Notes: generated by a model from the letters alone, not told the origin. A stretch of DNA of 64,000 nt from Candidatus Eremiobacteria bacterium (GCA_963758295.1 CAVWUU010000004.1:448001-512000); one strand, 5' to 3'; numbered from the stretch's first letter, positions 13,274-61,874 are shown. Made by a program: numbers and translations.

Positions 13274-13349
13274 CCCCATTGGTCCTTCGGCTTTGGCGCC
13301 CGACGCTCCGATGCGCAGCCGAAGCCGAATGCGCGGGAACGATGGGATC

Positions 13350-14927
13350 ATGCGTTTCGCCGCTGCCGCGATACTGGGACTTCTCCTCACGGCGTGCGGT
13401 GGCGCGCCCCACAGCGATCGACCGTTCCGGATCGTCCAAACCCAAGACCTTCAGACCCTGAACCCGATCTACGTCTCCGGCGTCGGCGCCCAAGGGCTAG
13501 CCGCGCTGCTCTTTTCCTATTTAGTGAAGATCGACGACCGGGGCCGGCTCGTTCCGGACGTTGCCCTCGCGGTTCCGACATTGCAAAACGGCGGCATTAG
13601 CGCCGACGGGCTCACCGTCACCTACCATCTTCGGCGCGGCGTGCGCTTCTCGGACGGGTCGCCGCTGAGCGCCAAGGATGTGGCCGGAACAATCGCCCGG
13701 CTGGCCGCCGGCGATAGCGACGCACCGACGAGGATCGGGTTCGATGATATCCGCAGCGTCGAAACCCCATCGGCATTAACGGTGCGCGTGCGGCTGAAGC
13801 GGCCGTACGCACCAATCGTTCTTTATGTGTGCGGGCCGGGAAACGCGGTACCGATTTTACCTGCTCATCTGCTGCCGCCCACCCACCGCATGGCGAATCT
13901 CCCATTCAGCTCGGCGCCGGTCGGGTCTGGCCCGTACGTCGTACAGCGCTGGGAGCGGGGCGATCGCCTTGAGCTTCGCGCGAACCCGCGCTACTTTCGC
14001 GGCAAACCGCGCATCGAGCGAATCGATCTCCTTTTCTCGCCCACGTCGACCACCGCCATCCAGCTGCTGCGGACGCACGAAGCCGACGCATACCTCAATG
14101 CCGACGACTCCCAGTACACAACGTTGCGCGCAATGCGTCTGCGAGTCGATCGCGTGCCGATCGATGGTACGGGCGCGCTGATTTTCAACACGCAAGACCG
14201 CACGCTGCGCGACCCGCGCGTTCGCCGCGCGTTTGCGCTCGCGATAAACGCGCCGGCTCTCGTCCAAAGGATGCTGCTCGGACAGCGCGCCTCGAACCCC
14301 GGACGCGGCATGTTCGGTTGGGCGTACGATGAGCGCGCGTTCGCGATGCCGCCGTACGAGCCGCAACGAGCGGCCGCGCTGCTCACGCAAGCGGGATGGA
14401 TGCCCGGCCTCGACCGGATTCGTCAACGCTCCGGCGAGCGGCTCACGCTTGATTTGATCGTTCGAAGCGACAAGCCGAGCGGCGTCGAGCTCGCGACGGA
14501 AATTCAAGCCTACGAACGCGCGGCCGGCATCGACGTCTCCATTCGGCGGTTTCCAATTGCATCGATGGTCGCGCCTTCAGGCCCGTTGTATTCAGGAAAC
14601 TATGCCGTCGCGTTCTTCCCGTTCATCGGCGGGTTCGATCCGGACGTGACGGATCAGTTTGCCTGCGATCGCATTCCACCGCGCGGATTCAACAAACCGC
14701 GTTATTGCAATCCCCGCTTAGATCCGATCATGCGCCAAGCCGCAACGACGTACGACATAAGCAAACGCGCTGCGCTCTATCGCGCGATTCAGAAGACGCT
14801 TGCCCGCGATTTGCCGATCGACACGCTCTATCAAGCGGTATCGATAAACGCGTTTCCCGCTGCGCTCAAAGGCCAGACAACCGCGATCACGACACCCCTA
14901 TGGAATGTCGCCGCTTGGCATTTCTAA
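13350..14927 (+). CDS. ABC transporter family 5 (peptide-type) substrate-binding lipoprotein, orphan
   Basis: Lipobox LLTAC; GISADGLTVTYHLRRGVRFSDG; PVGSGPY. Confidence 0.9.
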   Translation: MRFAAAAILGLLLTACGGAPHSDRPFRIVQTQDLQTLNPIYVSGVGAQGLAALLFSYLVKIDDRGRLVPDVALAVPTLQNGGISADGLTVTYHLRRGVRFSDGSPLSAKDVAGTIARLAAGDSDAPTRIGFDDIRSVETPSALTVRVRLKRPYAPIVLYVCGPGNAVPILPAHLLPPTHRMANLPFSSAPVGSGPYVVQRWERGDRLELRANPRYFRGKPRIERIDLLFSPTSTTAIQLLRTHEADAYLNADDSQYTTLRAMRLRVDRVPIDGTGALIFNTQDRTLRDPRVRRAFALAINAPALVQRMLLGQRASNPGRGMFGWAYDERAFAMPPYEPQRAAALLTQAGWMPGLDRIRQRSGERLTLDLIVRSDKPSGVELATEIQAYERAAGIDVSIRRFPIASMVAPSGPLYSGNYAVAFFPFIGGFDPDVTDQFACDRIPPRGFNKPRYCNPRLDPIMRQAATTYDISKRAALYRAIQKTLARDLPIDTLYQAVSINAFPAALKGQTTAITTPLWNVAAWHF

Positions 14928-55337: not shown

Positions 55338-56746
55338 TTACAAGGTAATCGTTACGGTCGTTCCGCGCGCGGGAGCGCTCGACAAGCGGATCGTTCCGCC
55401 GGCCCTTTCCACGGCTCGCTTGCTATTGCGAGTCCCAGGCCGCTCCCAGCAATTTCGCCGCGCTGATCGCCGCGATAGAAACGTTCGAACGCGTGCAGTT
55501 GTTCCGACTCGGTCATCCCGGGACCCTCGTCGGCGACCGTAATGGTGGTATGGCCGGCGTTCGCGCCTGCCGCCAAGTGAATGGGTGCCTCCGGCGCATA
55601 TTTCAAGGCATTTTCGACGATGTTCCAAATGGCGTCGCCTAGCTCAACGCGGTCGCCGACGATCGATCTTACGCCATCGACGCTGTAGTCGACGATCCTG
55701 GCTGTCGTCAAGGCGTTTTGCCGCATCGACCTGACTGCGAAGCAGCTCCGACAAATCGATCGTTTCCACGCGAGGAGGCGTGTCCGAATCGAGCCGTGCC
55801 AAGCGCATGAGCCGGTCGATGAGCGTCCGCATGTGTTCTTTCTCGAACGCCATGGTGGCGAGAATCTGACGCGCTATCGTCGGCTCCTCGATTGCGCCCC
55901 GACGCAACACGTCGATGTAGCCGCCGATTACGGTAAGCGGCGTACGAAGTTCGTGTCCCGCATCGGCGACGAATTGCCGCATGCGTTCTTCCGTCCGCTG
56001 CCGTTCGCCATGGCCCCTGCGACGTTTGCTGCAGCGTCGTTATAGGCGGCGGTCAGGGTGCCGATTTCGTCGCCGCCCGGCGCCAAAAAGCGTCGCTGCG
56101 TAAAGTCGCCTTCCGCAAGCGCGCGAAGCGCGTCGGTGACGTCGGCGATTGGGCGCAGGGCCTGGCGCGCGAAAAAGCGCCCGATGAACCAGGAAAGCAC
56201 GATCGAAATTACCGCGAGCGTAACGACGACGCGCCAATACGGTAAGAGCGAAACGAGCAACAGCGGCAACGAAGGTGAGAACGCGACAAAACCGCCGTCC
56301 ACCGCCGTGAGCGCAAACGGCTCCGCGGGCCCGATGGCACGATAACCGCCCGGATGCTGCATCTCCATTGCTTCGCCTAACCGGCTCGTGGGTTCGGGCG
56401 GCGGCAACTCTTCTTTGCCGCTTAGCACAGCATTCAGAACGGGTGGACGAAGCGTCTTATCGCCGGCCAAAAAGCGTCCGCGCTTGTCGAATACCGCGAC
56501 GCGCAAACCGATGCCGCTCAGAGCGTTGACGATTTCCGGCGCGGCTTGCTGGAGCGAGAGCCCCTCGGCTTTGTACTGCTCGGTGAGTATGCGCGCTTCT
56601 TCGTGCTTTGCGATAACGATGTCGCTCGTAAAGTTCGTCAGTTCCATGACGAGCGCGATGCTCGAGGCGAGAATGACGAGCAGAATCGTAATACCAAGAA
56701 GCGTCGCGTACAACCACGACAGCCGGGATGCGAGAGATTGCTTCAT
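55338..56746 (-). CDS. HAMP-containing sensor histidine kinase, with three apparent frameshifts
   Basis: Two TM, HAMP (DEIGTL), ADAGHELRTPL, NIVENALKY, DEGPG, GSGLGLAI spread over ORFs 55928-56746, 55644-55982, 55352-55726 and 55338-55628. Confidence 0.88.
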
Positions 56747-56749
56747 GCG

Positions 56750-57438
56750 TTACTGCGAAAGCCCGTAACCGACGCCGCGAACCGTGCGGATGAAAGAGCC
56801 GGGTTCGCCGGGCCGGTCGATCTTCGAACGCAAGTACGAGATATACGTTTCGACGATGTTCGGGCCGCCTTCGAAATCGTGACCCCATACGATCTCGAGC
56901 AGATGATCTTTGCTGAAGACGCGCCGCGGCTCGCGCATGAAACACCGAAAGCAAATCGAACTCTCGCTGCGTCAGATCGATTGATTCTTTGCCTCGCCAG
57001 GCTTCGCGCGTGGACGGGTTCACGGACACATCGTGCCAGCGAACGATATTTTCTTCGATGAGTTGCGGGCGCCGCAGCTTGGCTTGCAAGCGTGCAATGA
57101 GCTCTTCGAACACAAACGGCTTCACCAAATAGTCGTCTGCGCCGGCGCTCAAACTCGCAACTTTTCCTTCGGTATCGCCCTTGGCGGTTAGCATGAGGAT
57201 CGGCGCTTGCGTGAGTTCGCGGAGCTTTGGCAGCAACGTAATACCGTCGATTTTCGGCATCATGATGTCGAGAACGATCACTTCGGGATCGAAGCGACTG
57301 TACGAGGTCCAGCGCCGCACTACCGTCGGCGGCCGTCTCGACTTGATAGCCTTCGCGAGAAAGCCCCAGTTGGAGCATTTCGCGAATCATGCGGTCGTCG
57401 TCGATCACGGCGACACGAGCGTTGAACATACCGAGCAT
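56750..57438 (-). CDS. OmpR/PhoB-family response regulator, with two apparent frameshifts
   Basis: VIDDD, LDIMMP, ADDYLVKPF, LTQREFDLL, VETYISYLRSKI...TVRGVGY. Confidence 0.9.
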
Positions 57439-57486: not shown

Positions 57487-57942
57487 TCAAGCGGCGTGCA
57501 GTGGTGAATGCCAGCGGCGATATGTTCCTCCGGAGATGAGCGCCGCTTGACGGATCGCTTCTAAGGGGTGGGAAATGAGCGTCACGCCCGAGCGGCGCAA
57601 TCCGGCGACAAGGACGTCATCCGGGAACCACCGCGCGAACAAGTGCACTTCCGCCGTACCTGCCGCCTCGGCTAGAAGGGCGAGGACGTCGGCGAGGCTG
57701 CATTCGACCCGGGTGAGGAGCCGCTCGACGACTTCAGTGCGGAATCGCGGGCCGTTCCACCCGGCCGCCATGACGAGGACCTTCGAAAGATCCGCTGCCT
57801 CCGTCGACTCGAAGTCGACGAGAGCCGCTTTTACGTTGGCCGCGATCAGCGGATCGGTCTGCGCGTGCAGCGTAGCCCCTGCGATCGTTGCGTGCGGGCC
57901 GGCCGTGAGGAGGGCGCCGGAACCGATGACGTAGTCGTTCAT
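57487..57942 (-). CDS. Hypothetical protein
   Basis: 151-aa ORF with normal codon usage; no motif recognised. Confidence 0.65.
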   Translation of the reverse strand: MNDYVIGSGALLTAGPHATIAGATLHAQTDPLIAANVKAALVDFESTEAADLSKVLVMAAGWNGPRFRTEVVERLLTRVECSLADVLALLAEAAGTAEVHLFARWFPDDVLVAGLRRSGVTLISHPLEAIRQAALISGGTYRRWHSPLHAA

Positions 57943-57985
57943 GCCCTTAGGATCGCACCGGCGAATGCCAACTGCATGGCATTCA

Positions 57986-58016
57986 AAAATAAAGAGGCGC
58001 CGCTAATCGGCGCCTC
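57986..58016 (-). terminator. Intrinsic terminator after the HD-GYP gene
   Basis: Minus strand GAGGCGCCG-attag-CGGCGCCTC followed by TTTATTTTT. Confidence 0.85.
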
Positions 58017-58058
58017 CGCCCACACCCGGTCGCGGGTTTTTCCCTCGAGCGCCGGACG

Positions 58059-59045
58059 TTACGCCGAGGAAAGGTGAAGGTTCGCGTGCGACACGATCGG
58101 CGTTCGCTTTGCGAACATGCCAAGCATCGCGTCGACGACGTCGGGATCCCATTGACGGCCGCGGCCCGCTTCGAGAATCGCAAGCGCTTGCCGCGGAGGG
58201 ATCGGATTGCGGTACGGACGCTCGCTGATCATCGCGTGGAACGCGTCGGCCACGGCCACGATGCGGGCTTCGAGCGGGATGCTCGTGCCGGCCAAGCCGT
58301 CGGGATAGCCGGCACCGTCGTACCGCTCGTGGTGAGCACGAACGATGAGCGAGCAGCGTTGCAGCGTCGGAATTTGATTGAGCACTCGTGCGCCGGCAGC
58401 GGCGTGTTCCCGCATGATGTCCCACTCGTCGGGGGTCAGCGGCCCGTTCTTCAGCAGAATGGAATCGGGCGTCGAAATCTTGCCGATGTCGTGCAGCAGG
58501 GCGCAGAGCGAGATGAACTCGGCCATCTCTTCATGGCATCCCATGGCGAGAGCAAGGCGGCGCGCCCATTCGGCGGTCGCTTTGGAGTGACAGCACGTCC
58601 CATGATCGCGTTCGGACAACATGGCGAGCAGGGCGTTTGTACTTTCGGAATAGCCCGCTTCCCCATGCTCTTCCACTTCGGCGCCGAGGGCGCCGCGCTC
58701 GATTTCCCGTACGAGGACGTCTAGAAACGCCAGCAGGCGACCGTGTTCGACGTCGAACGGCGCGGCCGCAAGAGCGATCGCGTGGACGGCGGCGGCGGAC
58801 ACATCGATAACGCCGGCCTTCCCTAGGGCGGCGGTTTCGCGTTCAGACCAGCTCAGCAAACCGACTGGCTTCGCCAGAGTAAGAGACAGACAAAGCCGGT
58901 CCAGCAAGACTTCTAAGACTTGCTCCGTGCGGCGGTGGCTGGCAAGCGAGGACAAGGTAACGTGCTCGAACGCTTTATGCGCGAGCGCAGAGAGATCTTG
59001 CCCAAGAGCGGCTCCCAGAGCCGAAAGCGTACGAACCGAGGACAT
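58059..59045 (-). CDS. HD-GYP domain protein (predicted cyclic dinucleotide phosphodiesterase) with an unrecognised helical N domain
   Basis: ALLHDIGK, HHERYDGAGYPDGL, VADAFHAM...RPY; likely start MSSVRT at 59045. Confidence 0.92.
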   Translation of the reverse strand: MSSVRTLSALGAALGQDLSALAHKAFEHVTLSSLASHRRTEQVLEVLLDRLCLSLTLAKPVGLLSWSERETAALGKAGVIDVSAAAVHAIALAAAPFDVEHGRLLAFLDVLVREIERGALGAEVEEHGEAGYSESTNALLAMLSERDHGTCCHSKATAEWARRLALAMGCHEEMAEFISLCALLHDIGKISTPDSILLKNGPLTPDEWDIMREHAAAGARVLNQIPTLQRCSLIVRAHHERYDGAGYPDGLAGTSIPLEARIVAVADAFHAMISERPYRNPIPPRQALAILEAGRGRQWDPDVVDAMLGMFAKRTPIVSHANLHLSSA

Positions 59046-59077
59046 TGATGGATACCGAAAGCGAAAAGCTGCTCGGG

Positions 59078-59146
59078 TTAGCCCATTCCGGTCGGGGGAT
59101 AGTTGCACGCGACGACAAAGGCGGCGATGGCGAGAAGGGTGATCAT
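59078..59146 (-). CDS. Unannotated 22-aa peptide MITLLAIAAFVVACNYPPTGMG
   Basis: Manual translation; GAGGA RBS 12 nt upstream; mostly G/C-ending codons; hydrophobic N-half. Confidence 0.7.
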   Translation of the reverse strand: MITLLAIAAFVVACNYPPTGMG

Positions 59147-59187
59147 GTAATTTGGGCTTCCTCAATAAAAACGAGTTGTCTGCCCAA

Positions 59188-59234
59188 AAGATAGCCTAGG
59201 CCAATCGGCCCGGTCCCTACTTAGTTTTAAGTAG
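59188..59234 (-). promoter_or_regulatory. Palindromic operator and activator-dependent promoter for the peptide/HD-GYP unit
   Basis: CTACTTA-N4-TAAGTAG at 59217-59234, then 23 nt, then a TATCTT -10 (59188-59193); no consensus -35. Confidence 0.7.
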
Positions 59235-59240
59235 AGCCGT

Positions 59241-61874
59241 TTACAGCGCGTCCTCCAAGTACCCCATGCGCCGTGCGGTCGCTATTGCTTCCGCTCTACC
59301 GTGACAGCCGAGCTTCTCTATCAGGTTTTGAATATGGGTCTGAACCGTATAAACGCTACGCTCCATCTCGGCTGCTATATCCTTGGTCGTTAAGCCGCTC
59401 GCCAAAGAGCGAATGATGCGGAGTTCCGAGGGTGTTAGCTTGATGAAGACCTCTTGGGTGTGCGACGACTCGACGTACGTGGCGCTCGCCCGCAGATAGC
59501 GCCCGTAGTTTCCGAAGCCGAAGCTTTCGAGAGCCGCGATTCGCAACGCGATATCGTCCGGCACGTAAGACGCGCTCTTCGCCGCGCGTGACAACTGCTC
59601 GACCGCCTCTCGCATGCATACCATCGCTTCGGTAGAGCAGATCGGCGGCCGCTTCAAGATTCGCTGCGCTGCCGTGTGGCGGCCGCTAAGGGCTTCCGCC
59701 ATCGCGCTCAGCAGCAACGCCGCTTCGTAAACGGCGCTGCCGTATTCCCCCGGTGAACCCGAGGGCAGCTTGTCGAGGACGCCTTCCACGGCCTCGGCGC
59801 TCTCCTTAGCTTTGGAGTTCAGGGCCAGGCACAAGGCGCGGAATGCCGCGGTCGCGGCACGATCGGCGGCATGCGCCGACCGTTCTTGGACGATGCCGAA
59901 GAGACGCGCGGCCTCCGCAAACTCTCCGTTCCACGCATGACGGTGGGCTTGGCTCGCCATGACGTATGGTGCGCGCATGGTGTCGCTCGGCCGGAGATCC
60001 GCCAGCTGACGCTCGATTTGGAGCGAGCGCTCGGCATTGCCGCGCTTGATTTCTTGCGCGAGCATTTGCAGGAGCGAGATCTGCAAATCAAAGTAATCGC
60101 CGGCTTTCGTAGCGGCGGCCGCTGCCTGCTGCGAATACCATGAAGCTAGGCTCGTATCGCCGTCGCCGAGCGCCGCACACGCGGAGAGCGCCTGATACGC
60201 GCGCGAGGCGAGACTCCAGAGGCCGCTCGACGACGCGAGCTCCGCGGCTTTTTCTTGATAGCTCTTCGCACGATCGATATCGCCGCTCTCCTGGCGCGCG
60301 AGGCCGATACGTTGCAAGAGTTTGGCGAGCAGCGGAACCTCGATCACGTCGTCGAGCGATCCCTCCACGACGGTGATGTTTGCGGCCGCGCGCTGAACGT
60401 CGCCCGTGCGCACCGCAAAGACCGCGAGCATTGCGCGCGCTTCCAGTTTCGTTGTATCAGGCGCGTCGCTTTCGAGCAGCGAAAGGAGCAGCTCGTTCGG
60501 ATCGCGTCCCTGATTGACCAAGAACATCGCGAGCCGCAAAACCAGGTCTGCGCGAACTCGCGGATCGCCGCCCAAGCGAATAGCACGCTGCAGATGACGT
60601 TCGCCGGAATCGTAGCGGCCGGCTGCGATTTCGAGGATTCCTTTGAGGCCGTTCAAGATCGCTTCGCGCGCGTGCATCGGCGGCGGAATCGCTTCCAACG
60701 CACGCGTCACGACGTCGCCATGCCCCTGCGTAATCAGATACATGCCGTGCGCGAGCAATAGCTGGACCATGTGTTCCGGGCTGCCGGCATCGACGAAAAG
60801 ATTCAGCGCCGCATCGAAGTCGCCGCGCTTCTGCAGCACGGCGCCGAGCGTTACCCGGCGTTCGAGCGCTACGCGCTTTCCTTGCAACGCCAATTGGTGC
60901 TGGACGAATTCACGGAACAGATCGTGCAGGCGATACCCGGCGGCGTGCTCGTGAATGAATGCAACGCGTTGACGCAAATCTTCGATCATCGCAGCGGCTC
61001 GATCGAAGCCCGCCTCGGTCATCACGTCGACGTTGATCTCGGAAAGCAGCGAAGCGCTCTCGATAAAGCAGCGTTCTTCTTCATTCAGCGTCGCGTAGAC
61101 TTGCTCGGCGAGATAACGGTAGATCATCTCGCGCGTCATCGTCGAGATGTTGCGCAGATCGATCGAACGCGTCGACGAACGCAGGGCGAAACTGATTGCC
61201 GTCGCCCAGCCGTCGGTCAAATGCAGAAGATCGTAAAGCTCTTCGTCTCGCACGCCCAGGCGGAACGTGCGCGCGGCTTCTTTCGCCTCGTCGACGGAAA
61301 ACTTCAGGTCGTGTTCGTCGATGGCAAGGTCGCTATCGCCATACGCGAGCCAGGTGCCGATCGGGAGACCGAGCGTCGAGCGCGACGCAATGATCCATTG
61401 CACGCGCCCCTTCGTGCGTTCGATGAGCGCGCTCAAGAAACGCGTCACTTCGCGGTCTTCTTGCGCCACGTGCAAATCGTCGATGGCGATGACGCCTCGA
61501 TATGACTTCACGTGGGAGTGCATCCAAAGGGCCAGGTCCGCGCCGGGATTGGCAGATCCGGCGTTCTTCTCGTAGGCGCCCGGCAACGTGGCGCGCGCGT
61601 CGGGAGCGATTTCGATCAGCGCGTCGGCGAAGCCGCGCAAAAAGCCGAGCAGTGCCCCGTGGTCGCTTCTCACGTCAAAGCGAACGCACGACTCCTTGCT
61701 TGCCTCCAAGAATTGAGCTAACGCCACCGACTTGCCGTATCCGGCAGGCGCTACGATCAGCACGACACGCTGCATTGCTGCAGACGCGATCCGATCGATT
61801 ACGCGACGGCGCACGATCGGTACAAAAACTCCGCCGGTCTCTATGGTGCCGTCGGAGCGAACGGGCCGGATCAT
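59241..61874 (-). CDS. MalT-like STAND ATPase with helical-repeat sensor region and C-terminal LuxR HTH
   Basis: APAGYGKS Walker A, IAIDDLH Walker B, TDGW, YRLHDLFREF, LTPSELRII..LASG.TTKDIA...TVQTH..N...KLG. Confidence 0.93.
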   Translation of the reverse strand: MIRPVRSDGTIETGGVFVPIVRRRVIDRIASAAMQRVVLIVAPAGYGKSVALAQFLEASKESCVRFDVRSDHGALLGFLRGFADALIEIAPDARATLPGAYEKNAGSANPGADLALWMHSHVKSYRGVIAIDDLHVAQEDREVTRFLSALIERTKGRVQWIIASRSTLGLPIGTWLAYGDSDLAIDEHDLKFSVDEAKEAARTFRLGVRDEELYDLLHLTDGWATAISFALRSSTRSIDLRNISTMTREMIYRYLAEQVYATLNEEERCFIESASLLSEINVDVMTEAGFDRAAAMIEDLRQRVAFIHEHAAGYRLHDLFREFVQHQLALQGKRVALERRVTLGAVLQKRGDFDAALNLFVDAGSPEHMVQLLLAHGMYLITQGHGDVVTRALEAIPPPMHAREAILNGLKGILEIAAGRYDSGERHLQRAIRLGGDPRVRADLVLRLAMFLVNQGRDPNELLLSLLESDAPDTTKLEARAMLAVFAVRTGDVQRAAANITVVEGSLDDVIEVPLLAKLLQRIGLARQESGDIDRAKSYQEKAAELASSSGLWSLASRAYQALSACAALGDGDTSLASWYSQQAAAAATKAGDYFDLQISLLQMLAQEIKRGNAERSLQIERQLADLRPSDTMRAPYVMASQAHRHAWNGEFAEAARLFGIVQERSAHAADRAATAAFRALCLALNSKAKESAEAVEGVLDKLPSGSPGEYGSAVYEAALLLSAMAEALSGRHTAAQRILKRPPICSTEAMVCMREAVEQLSRAAKSASYVPDDIALRIAALESFGFGNYGRYLRASATYVESSHTQEVFIKLTPSELRIIRSLASGLTTKDIAAEMERSVYTVQTHIQNLIEKLGCHGRAEAIATARRMGYLEDAL

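Follow-up and report, generated by a model that had tools for sequence, protein, structure and literature searches.

In a 64,000-nucleotide (nt) stretch of contig 4 of a Candidatus Eremiobacteria bacterium (GCA_963758295.1 CAVWUU010000004.1:448001-512000, the whole of which we call the window), the gene for an 877-amino-acid (aa) MalT-like STAND/LuxR regulator is followed by a palindrome, a promoter, a small open reading frame (ORF) for a 22-aa peptide, an HD-GYP phosphodiesterase gene and an intrinsic terminator (Table 1). As judged from sequence comparison, this module is real, conserved and lineage-specific and not a chance arrangement. We tentatively interpret it as a dedicated peptide autoinduction loop that resembles the RRNPP systems, is built on a MalT-like receptor and has cyclic-dinucleotide hydrolysis as its output. 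The whole analysis was computational, consisting of sequence comparison and predicted structures. The assembly, from an uncultured soil bacterium, comprises 3.03 Mb in 6 contigs with 82% completeness. A model that had read the window without knowing its origin (the sequence-only reading) had proposed each of these elements, including a ribosome-binding site (RBS) for the peptide ORF, and all of them were found on the minus strand where it had placed them. Its interpretation as an autoinduction loop was supported by every computational check that it had proposed, and no outcome that it had named as contrary was seen.

In the proposed circuit, the small ORF would encode a pro-peptide whose C-terminal ~8-11 residues (here ..VACNYPPTGMG) would be the signal, and its uncharged hydrophobic N-terminal part would serve export or processing. 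The tail would fit into the concave groove formed by the regulator's helical-repeat sensor, and ligand binding would, by analogy with MalT, license ATP-dependent oligomerisation. A dimer of the LuxR-type helix-turn-helix (HTH) domain on the palindrome, which overlaps a weak -35 element, would then activate the small-ORF/HD-GYP operon, giving more peptide (positive feedback) and hydrolysis of cyclic di-GMP (c-di-GMP) or a related cyclic dinucleotide.

Table 1 Features of the module and its neighbourhood, numbered from the first nucleotide of the window
Feature	Position	Strand	Evidence or remark
STAND/LuxR regulator gene	61874..59241	minus	ORF, 877 aa; Pfam and NCBIfam matches
Perfect 7-4-7 palindrome CTACTTA-AAAC-TAAGTAG	59234..59217	strandless	Proposed operator of the LuxR HTH
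Activator-type promoter	59188..59217	minus	-35-like GGGACC 59217..59212, 18-nt spacer, -10 TATCTT 59193..59188
Shine-Dalgarno-like GAGGAAG of small ORF	59163..59157	minus	Sequence motif
Small ORF MITLLAIAAFVVACNYPPTGMG, 22 aa, stop included	ATG 59146 to stop 59078	minus	Proposed pro-peptide/ligand
HD-GYP phosphodiesterase gene, 328 aa	59045..58059	minus	Pfam HD_5, fold matches
Intrinsic terminator of small-ORF/HD-GYP operon	58017..57984	minus	GGAGGCGCC-loop-GGCGCCTC + T-run
ABM (antibiotic biosynthesis monooxygenase-like) gene, 110 aa	61919..62251	minus	44 nt upstream of regulator
151-aa ORF	57487..57942	minus	Directly past terminator
Response-regulator gene, frameshift-split	56457..57438	minus	Receiver positions 1-41 in ORF 56743..57438, 39-110 in 56457..57320
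Opp-type (SBP_bac_5) binding-protein gene	13293..14927	plus	C4:461593-462636

Distribution and conserved architecture

The distribution of the module was searched with aa 1-135 of the HD-GYP protein as the query. The N-terminal domain (N-domain) of this protein was present as one copy per genome in 84 of the 401 sampled genomes of the phylum, all belonging to family f1 (the genome of the window and 83 of 296 others), and was absent from the 104 genomes of 20 other families sampled. Public contigs bearing the domain were nearly all labelled as Candidatus Eremiobacterota or Vulcanimicrobiota metagenome-assembled genomes (MAGs; Baltobacteraceae, Aquilonibacter, Tyrphobacter). Five contigs with the cassette (L113, L121, L129, L130 and L144) carry the titles Alphaproteobacteria, Acidiferrales, Acidoferrum or Verrucomicrobiia and are probably mislabelled bins.

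From these 84 genomes, we compiled a set of 81 loci, leaving out one at a contig edge (G355), one from an unpublished genome (G193) and two weak matches near E 1e-3 (G259 and G261); one further genome (G370) was lost since tblastn missed its N-domain, and two genus mates were added. Locus L005 (genome G004) also comes from an unpublished genome, and no claim depends on it alone. The order regulator, palindrome, promoter, small ORF and HD-GYP gene was constant in these 81 species-level genomes, which represent one Eremiobacterota family (Baltobacteraceae-type MAGs). In all 81 loci, the LuxR C-terminus lay 125-330 nt upstream on the same strand. The small ORF between the regulator and HD-GYP genes was intact in 80 loci and frameshifted in one; 79 of the 81 are of a standard type and one (G335) is a repeat variant. 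The aligned intergenic regions showed, in succession, AAACGG, the palindrome, an RGAC-type -35, TAnnnT, a GGAGG-like RBS and ATG, with an RBS-like motif ahead of the small-ORF start in 75/81 loci. The expectation that orthologous regulators would be accompanied by a small ORF (20-45 aa here) whose N-half is hydrophobic and whose tail is of the Pro/Gly type, as well as by a CTAC..GTAG-type palindrome, was thus borne out in 81/81 loci. In the frameshifted locus (L058, genome G251), the N-part MLTVLIVAA.. lies in one frame and ..LVACDMPPQGA in another, reflecting either a sequencing error or a decaying copy.

Proposed operator and promoter

The palindrome begins 6 bases past the regulator stop codon and is the sole such site in the 3.03-Mb assembly at up to 2 mismatches; within the window, one site was found at up to 3 mismatches versus 0.18 expected from shuffles. 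Its centre lies ~44 bp upstream of the predicted start site. GGGACC, 18 nt upstream of the -10, is a poor -35, and a consensus scanner found no sigma-70-type promoter in 57900..59400, in agreement with the claim that the promoter has a -10 but no consensus -35. The spacing of these elements was fixed across the family: in 80/80 aligned loci, the -10 hexamer was TAnnnT and the palindrome-to--10 distance was either 22 nt (38 loci) or 23 nt (42 loci).

The palindrome also varied in a symmetric manner. Arm positions 2, 3, 5 and 7 were complementary in 74-78 of 78 loci, and symmetric double changes occurred at arm pairs 4 (C:G in 48 loci to G:C in 11) and 5 (T:A in 62 loci to C:G in 13). These changes followed the recognition helix of the regulator. 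Helices with Gln before the last position were accompanied by T at arm position 5 in 57/58 loci and those with Lys by C (C:G) in 13/14, while a Thr-to-Ala exchange at the second position of the helix accompanied C-to-G at arm position 4. Since the loci are related, the independent helix/half-site events are few (perhaps 3-5). At the sequence level, the operator-promoter geometry is fixed and helix and half-site covary, and we consider it highly probable that the regulator acts via the palindrome on the small-ORF/HD-GYP operon. This operon is the only operator-bearing target in the genome, and the regulon appears to be this single operon. We infer that the direction of regulation is activation and not repression. 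The operon would end at the strong terminator, whose stem has 10 bp with 8 GC pairs, followed by TTATTTTT.

Coding status and features of the small ORF

The ratio of non-synonymous to synonymous change (pN/pS) was 0.38 in the head of the small ORF and 0.41 in its last 8 codons, based on 8 close pairs (12 were chosen and 4 dropped for unequal peptide length). Between the window and its nearest relative, the small ORF showed 9 synonymous changes and 1 non-synonymous change. These substitution patterns indicate that the small ORF is coding.

The window peptide consists of an uncharged hydrophobic N-part and a Pro/Gly tail, and this plan is general in the family. The 79 standard peptides have 20-45 aa with a median of 23; M-[ILV]-T starts were found in 52 of them, Pro within the last ten residues in 77, PP there in 53, Gly at the C-terminus in 58, a lipobox-like xxxC in 16, and Lys or Arg in none. 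Neither Pfam nor NCBIfam has a family for the peptides. All 81 peptides were distinct, as were 77 of the 81 eight-residue tails, and even two very closely related loci, 0.015 apart in the NOD, have different tails, DLTPTVD and DLQANSE; going by these sequences, essentially every species has its own tail. Genus g46 has His-rich small-ORF forms of 36-45 aa with an extra ALPG[LM] unit.

Regulator and predicted binding of the peptide tail

The regulator showed Pfam matches to the GerE/LuxR HTH at residues 813-866 (4.5e-13), to AAA_22, AAA_16 and nSTAND P-loop families at 24-165 and to TPR models mid-protein, where only TPR_2 exceeded its cut-off (27.6 bits vs 27) and the remaining TPR models were below theirs. 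The Walker motifs, APAGYGKS at 42-49 and the DD of IAIDDLH at 132-133, were invariant in 35 sequences. Sequence matches in the PDB included the MalT NOD (8bob, 1.8e-12), GerE and the PH0952 TPR sensor, and the profile of the regulator weakly matched the TPR regulator chain 5dbk (5e-4), which we take to be NprR. The AlphaFold2 (AF2) model (mean predicted local distance difference test, pLDDT, 84.6) consisted of an alpha/beta NOD, a long alpha-solenoid with all-helical repeats at 333-806 and an HTH. Its fold matched 6mfv (STAND with a TPR sensor), 8bob (MalT NOD), Avs3 and Apaf-1, as well as TPR superhelices and the PH0952 TPR sensor. The protein thus combines an N-terminal STAND P-loop NTPase with a helical-repeat sensor and a C-terminal LuxR-type HTH, and the MalT-like architecture in the sequence-only reading agrees with the Pfam, PDB and fold matches alike. 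However, the regulator falls outside MalT orthology: the NCBIfam MalT model matched residues 20-431 (7e-40) at 136.8 bits, against an equivalog cut-off of 537 for the regulator of the maltotriose/maltose regulon. Among 35 orthologues, the mean p-distance was 0.25 for the NOD, 0.59 for the arm, 0.56 for the sensor and 0.37 for the HTH, with 0.41 for the HD-GYP N-domain and 0.24 for the HD-GYP catalytic domain.

Sensor residues 331-800 and the 22-aa peptide, each given as a 35-row alignment, were co-folded as the sequence-only reading had suggested. The runs gave ipSAE values of 0.65, 0.72 and 0.64, versus 0.02 for the best of three controls, with a partner pLDDT of 51-57 and at least 55% of the contacts common to the runs. 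The confident contacts were between peptide residues 12-22 and every second sensor helix within residues 450-675, and contacts on alternate helices are the usual geometry for a peptide in a TPR groove. In the calibration of the co-folding tool, this mark was reached by 116/157 solved complexes and 2/215 mismatched pairs. The co-fold passes its controls and supports binding without showing it. The contact residues were mixed, with N454, R522, R558, S641 and D671 invariant or nearly so and others among the most variable.

The variable positions among the predicted contacts covaried with the tail after regulator divergence had been regressed out (mean partial r 0.139, n=25, vs 0.016, n=191; p=7.6e-5). 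Eleven of the top 25 tail-covarying positions were contacts, and 0/500 label permutations matched the observed difference. No such excess at the contact positions was found for the peptide head (p=0.72), the HD-GYP N-domain (0.57), the HD-GYP catalytic domain (0.65) or the HTH (1.0). When helices were assigned from the monomer model, the groove-side helices showed a tail covariation of 0.085 versus 0.010 for the alternate ones (p=0.001, to be doubled at most because the groove-side set was picked from the co-fold; head p=0.74). The predicted covariation of tail and sensor thus held at the predicted groove positions and groove-lining helices and failed as an enrichment at the level of whole domains. 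A whole-domain Mantel-type correlation, in which the tail fitted best with the arm (0.51) and the sensor (0.49), was dropped as evidence because arm and sensor both evolve fast and saturate together; the sensor also diverges without tail change in close pairs. On the co-folds and the covariation, we regard the peptide tail as probably being the ligand of the regulator.

HD-GYP enzyme, the proposed output

A 368-aa ORF starting with TTG at 59165 runs across the small ORF in a different frame, and the true start of the HD-GYP gene is probably the ATG that gives 328 aa, 33 nt past the small ORF. The protein matched HD_5 with 5.2e-42 (143.9 bits vs a cut-off of 27.2) and contains the HD and HHERYDGAGYP motifs. 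H185-D186 and H238-P248 were invariant in 26 HD-GYP sequences, the latter conforming to HHExxDGxGYP. The AF2 model (pLDDT 78.8) matched the folds of 4mcw (PmGH), 4r8z (PA4781), 9rbz (DvhD) and 5z7c (V-cGAP3, specific for cyclic GMP-AMP, cGAMP). These matches include both c-di-GMP and cGAMP enzymes. The substrate would be c-di-GMP or a related cyclic dinucleotide. While the catalytic domain, motifs and fold are like those of these phosphodiesterases, their usual REC, PAS or GAF input domain is replaced here by a family-specific helical bundle (aa 1-120) without a Pfam family (best E 0.09) or an NCBIfam one. Regulation of the enzyme appears to be transcriptional, via the peptide circuit.

Four STAND paralogues without a detectable LuxR HTH (L162/G018, L164/G014, L167/G009 and L175/G006) end at most 50 nt from, or overlap, an HD-GYP frame with no small ORF between. 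These pairs would represent a different, possibly protein-protein, coupling of STAND and HD-GYP.

Sister cassettes and genomic background

STAND/LuxR paralogues, 29-36% identical to the paralogue used as the query, were matched 1-6 times per genome, both within the family and in another family of the same order, and many of them sit upstream of HD-GYP genes. In family f2 (4 genomes), an ORF of 49-51 aa with the form MTR-hydrophobic-LGLAAC-SGGG...GG[LM]PPN[LH] lies downstream of the palindrome CTACCnAATTTnGGTAG and a promoter of the same layout. It combines a signal which we take, from its consensus, to be of the lipoprotein type with a subsequent Pro-Pro tail of like kind. Genome G022 has an 879-aa regulator (34% identical over the full length), a 66-aa ORF that combines a lipoprotein-type signal with two copies of DASSPLFAA, and an HD-GYP protein with an unrelated N-domain. 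The ORF of G011 (L166) has a hydrophobic N-part and then three copies of DAPSPGF with R or K after each, and the repeat variant of G335 (L085) has three copies of SVVPVGGA and no hydrophobic part. The signal peptides and tandem tail copies of these sister cassettes point to an exported and processed precursor. According to PMC10075063, intragenic duplication is frequent in RRNPP pro-peptides. The peptide of the window may act after export, as a quorum or autocrine signal, in which case it would be exported and taken up again.

The genome of the window has M50 site-2 proteases, ~10 full binding proteins of the Opp type and ~17 GGDEF matches; being generic, these tell no more than that the required background is there. 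One of the Opp-type binding-protein genes lies in the window, with no evident link to the module. Downstream of a paralogous regulator in the same genome (L022, 880 aa, 33% identical), the small ORF, the palindrome and the HD-GYP gene are all missing. Four nt past the stop of this regulator begins the gene (4064..5305 of L022, on contig 3) of a 413-aa protein with a lipoprotein-type signal, five tandem copies of DAATALPG and a subtilase domain (Peptidase_S8, 1.5e-6), which may be a further precursor of repeat peptides, joined to its own protease.

The neighbours of the module (the ABM gene, the 151-aa ORF, the response-regulator gene and a HAMP kinase) are uninformative on its function because the neighbourhood is syntenic throughout the family. 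The ABM gene was syntenic in 28/40 related loci; the 151-aa ORF, which has no Pfam family, kept its position in 33/40 with 49-93% identity. The split response-regulator gene, whose pieces are matched by relatives in differing relative frames, reflects an indel in the assembly or else is a pseudogene. A completeness of only 82% despite only 6 contigs hints at indel errors in the assembly.

Weighing of the autoinduction reading and its alternatives

Several observations weigh against an autoinduction loop driven by an exported peptide. The co-fold, with a chain of <30 residues and alignments supplied by us, lies beyond the calibration of the tool. The contact residues were no more conserved than the remaining groove span, and the covariation at the groove may be partly circular because the co-fold had the same two alignments. 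Tail-covarying positions were not enriched in the sensor, those above the 90th percentile making up 15% of the sensor, 14% of the NOD and 12% of the HD-GYP N-domain. The sensor also diverges despite similar tails, with a p-distance of 0.42 for DMPPTGN versus DMPPTGD and 0.47-0.55 among PGPxxG tails. In the window peptide, as in the other standard peptides, a canonical Sec signal is not evident because there is no basic N-region, and the N-part carries 2-3 acidic residues in one genus. A comparison of the neighbourhoods of related loci found no exporter or peptidase specifically linked to the module. Finally, the palindrome with its flanks folds as RNA at -15.3 kcal/mol (z -3.4), as a possible 3' hairpin of the regulator mRNA would.

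Together with its position 6-25 nt past the regulator stop codon in most loci, this folding would fit a palindrome that is merely a 3' hairpin or terminator of the regulator mRNA and no protein-binding site. However, no U-tract follows it, and arm pair 6 (positions 6/13) was complementary in just 32/78 loci, with recurrent fixed mismatches (T/C in 25 and G/A in 14), which argues against selection for an RNA stem. Neither the fixed distance to the -10 nor half-sites that follow the recognition helix suit a hairpin alone, which we consider quite improbable, and the hairpin and operator roles are compatible with each other. A further possibility at the RNA level is a regulatory leader, in which translation of Pro-Pro-x-Gly near the stop would stall ribosomes or couple translation and the peptide itself would have no function. 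The frequent PP near the C-terminus would suit such a leader, as would the short gap to the HD-GYP start and the overlap of the two ORFs at some loci; yet PP is absent from 26/79 peptides, and the N-terminal M-[ILV]-T-hydrophobic pattern is conserved though unneeded for stalling. The leader RNA is also structurally unremarkable (z +1.5), Rfam gave no match in 57900..59400, and tandem repeats and signal peptides as in the sister cassettes would make no sense for a leader, so that a translational leader, like a membrane micro-protein, is hard to reconcile with them. We regard the leader as a very remote prospect.

The peptide could instead be a membrane-associated or soluble micro-protein that binds the HD-GYP N-domain as an anchor or modulator and is unrelated to the regulator sensor. 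The predicted co-transcription of the small ORF with the HD-GYP gene (gaps of -13 to +58 nt) agrees with this, the N-domain is as lineage-restricted as the peptide, and domain-level tail covariation is similar for the N-domain (mean r 0.055) and the sensor (0.049). However, the hydrophobic stretch comprises just ~11-16 residues, is interrupted by Asp or Glu in one genus and is missing altogether from the G335 variant, and G022 and family f2, with an unrelated HD-GYP N-domain, still have a small ORF with a Pro-rich tail. With the peptide-sensor co-fold passing while its controls stayed at 0.02, a micro-protein of this kind seems unlikely. The binding evidence, both co-fold and covariation, would serve equally for an unexported peptide that binds the STAND sensor as a co-activator or anti-activator, forming a cell-autonomous bistable switch or a self-limiting loop. 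Such an intracellular feedback ligand would agree with the missing secretion signal, the acidic or amphipathic N-part in one genus and the lack of a linked exporter at the locus neighbourhoods. Against it, the lipoprotein-type signals ahead of a like tail in f2 and G022 would remove the peptide from the cytoplasm, the tandem tails with basic residues in G011 resemble a processed precursor, and 77 distinct tails in 81 species suit private signals better than an internal co-factor. We judge it a rather unlikely explanation. The autoinduction loop with an exported peptide remains the reading that we put forward.

Comparison with known systems

To our knowledge, gene-encoded peptide pheromones with cytoplasmic repeat-domain receptors have so far been a speciality of Firmicutes, in the form of the RRNPP systems. 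Like these (Rap, Rgg, NprR, PlcR and PrgX, and especially Rgg with short hydrophobic peptides), the module combines a putative cytoplasmic receptor of helical repeats (possibly of the TPR type) that is itself the transcription factor with a neighbouring gene for a small pro-peptide (~20-50 aa), in which the last 4-10 residues serve, or here would serve, as the signal. Groove binding (predicted here), autoinduction of the peptide gene (proposed here) and intragenic duplication of the mature part are further likenesses. The RRNPP signature of PMC10075063 has five parts: a propeptide of 10-100 aa, secretion by Sec (with a basic N-region and a hydrophobic core) or by PptAB (SHP type), a receptor of 250-500 aa, peptide-binding TPRs, and neighbouring genes at -60 to 400 bp. 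The lengths of the standard peptides fall within the first range, as do the 94 nt between the regulator stop (59241) and the small-ORF start (59146) within the last; the regulator, in contrast, far exceeds the receptor range. It also carries a STAND NTPase and a C-terminal LuxR HTH where RRNPP receptors have an N-terminal Cro/C1-type HTH. The peptide differs in having no basic N-region, the host is an Eremiobacterota member and not one of the Firmicutes, and an HD-GYP output is encoded in the same operon.

With MalT and the LAL (large ATP-binding LuxR-family) regulators, the regulator shares the order of NOD, arm, helical-repeat sensor and LuxR HTH and an activator site, here a predicted one, placed over a weak -35. 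MalT binds arrays of asymmetric boxes, whereas the operator here is a single inverted repeat; the regulator is not orthologous to MalT and, in place of maltotriose, would have a gene-encoded peptide as its ligand. Most MalT/LAL-type STAND regulators have, as far as we know, no known ligand. The lipoprotein-signal pheromones of enterococci and the peptides processed by PptAB/Eep are comparable in that the pro-peptide here is also signal-peptide-like and the sister cassettes have true lipoprotein-type signals. They differ in that the conserved, co-folding part here follows the Cys/Asp position and does not lie inside the signal peptide.

No account of a STAND/LuxR regulator that senses a peptide, or of this module, turned up in full-text literature searches. 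One preprint (10.1101/2024.03.06.583649) goes no further than to speculate that internalised peptides might be ligands of mycobacterial LuxR proteins with TPRs.

Significance

Taken in its widest form, our interpretation is that the STAND/LuxR regulators of Eremiobacterota are independently evolved intracellular peptide-pheromone receptors, each with a linked, species-specific and sometimes multi-copy pro-peptide, a co-evolving operator and an HD-GYP output; we offer this as possible but not yet probable. If true, this would give bacterial STAND transcription factors their first cognate peptide ligand and a new ligand class. It would place peptide quorum sensing outside Firmicutes on an NLR-like ATPase switch, coupling cell-cell signalling directly to cyclic-dinucleotide turnover, and the paralogous cassettes (those of f2, G022 and G011 and the own-genome subtilase with five DAATALPG copies) would be further channels of the same signalling family. 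The conserved loci would provide a natural panel of ~80 receptor/peptide/operator triplets for specificity studies. For the Eremiobacterota, which were represented by MAGs only in the searches made, the module would offer a first point of entry to cell-cell signalling and to the control of c-di-GMP.

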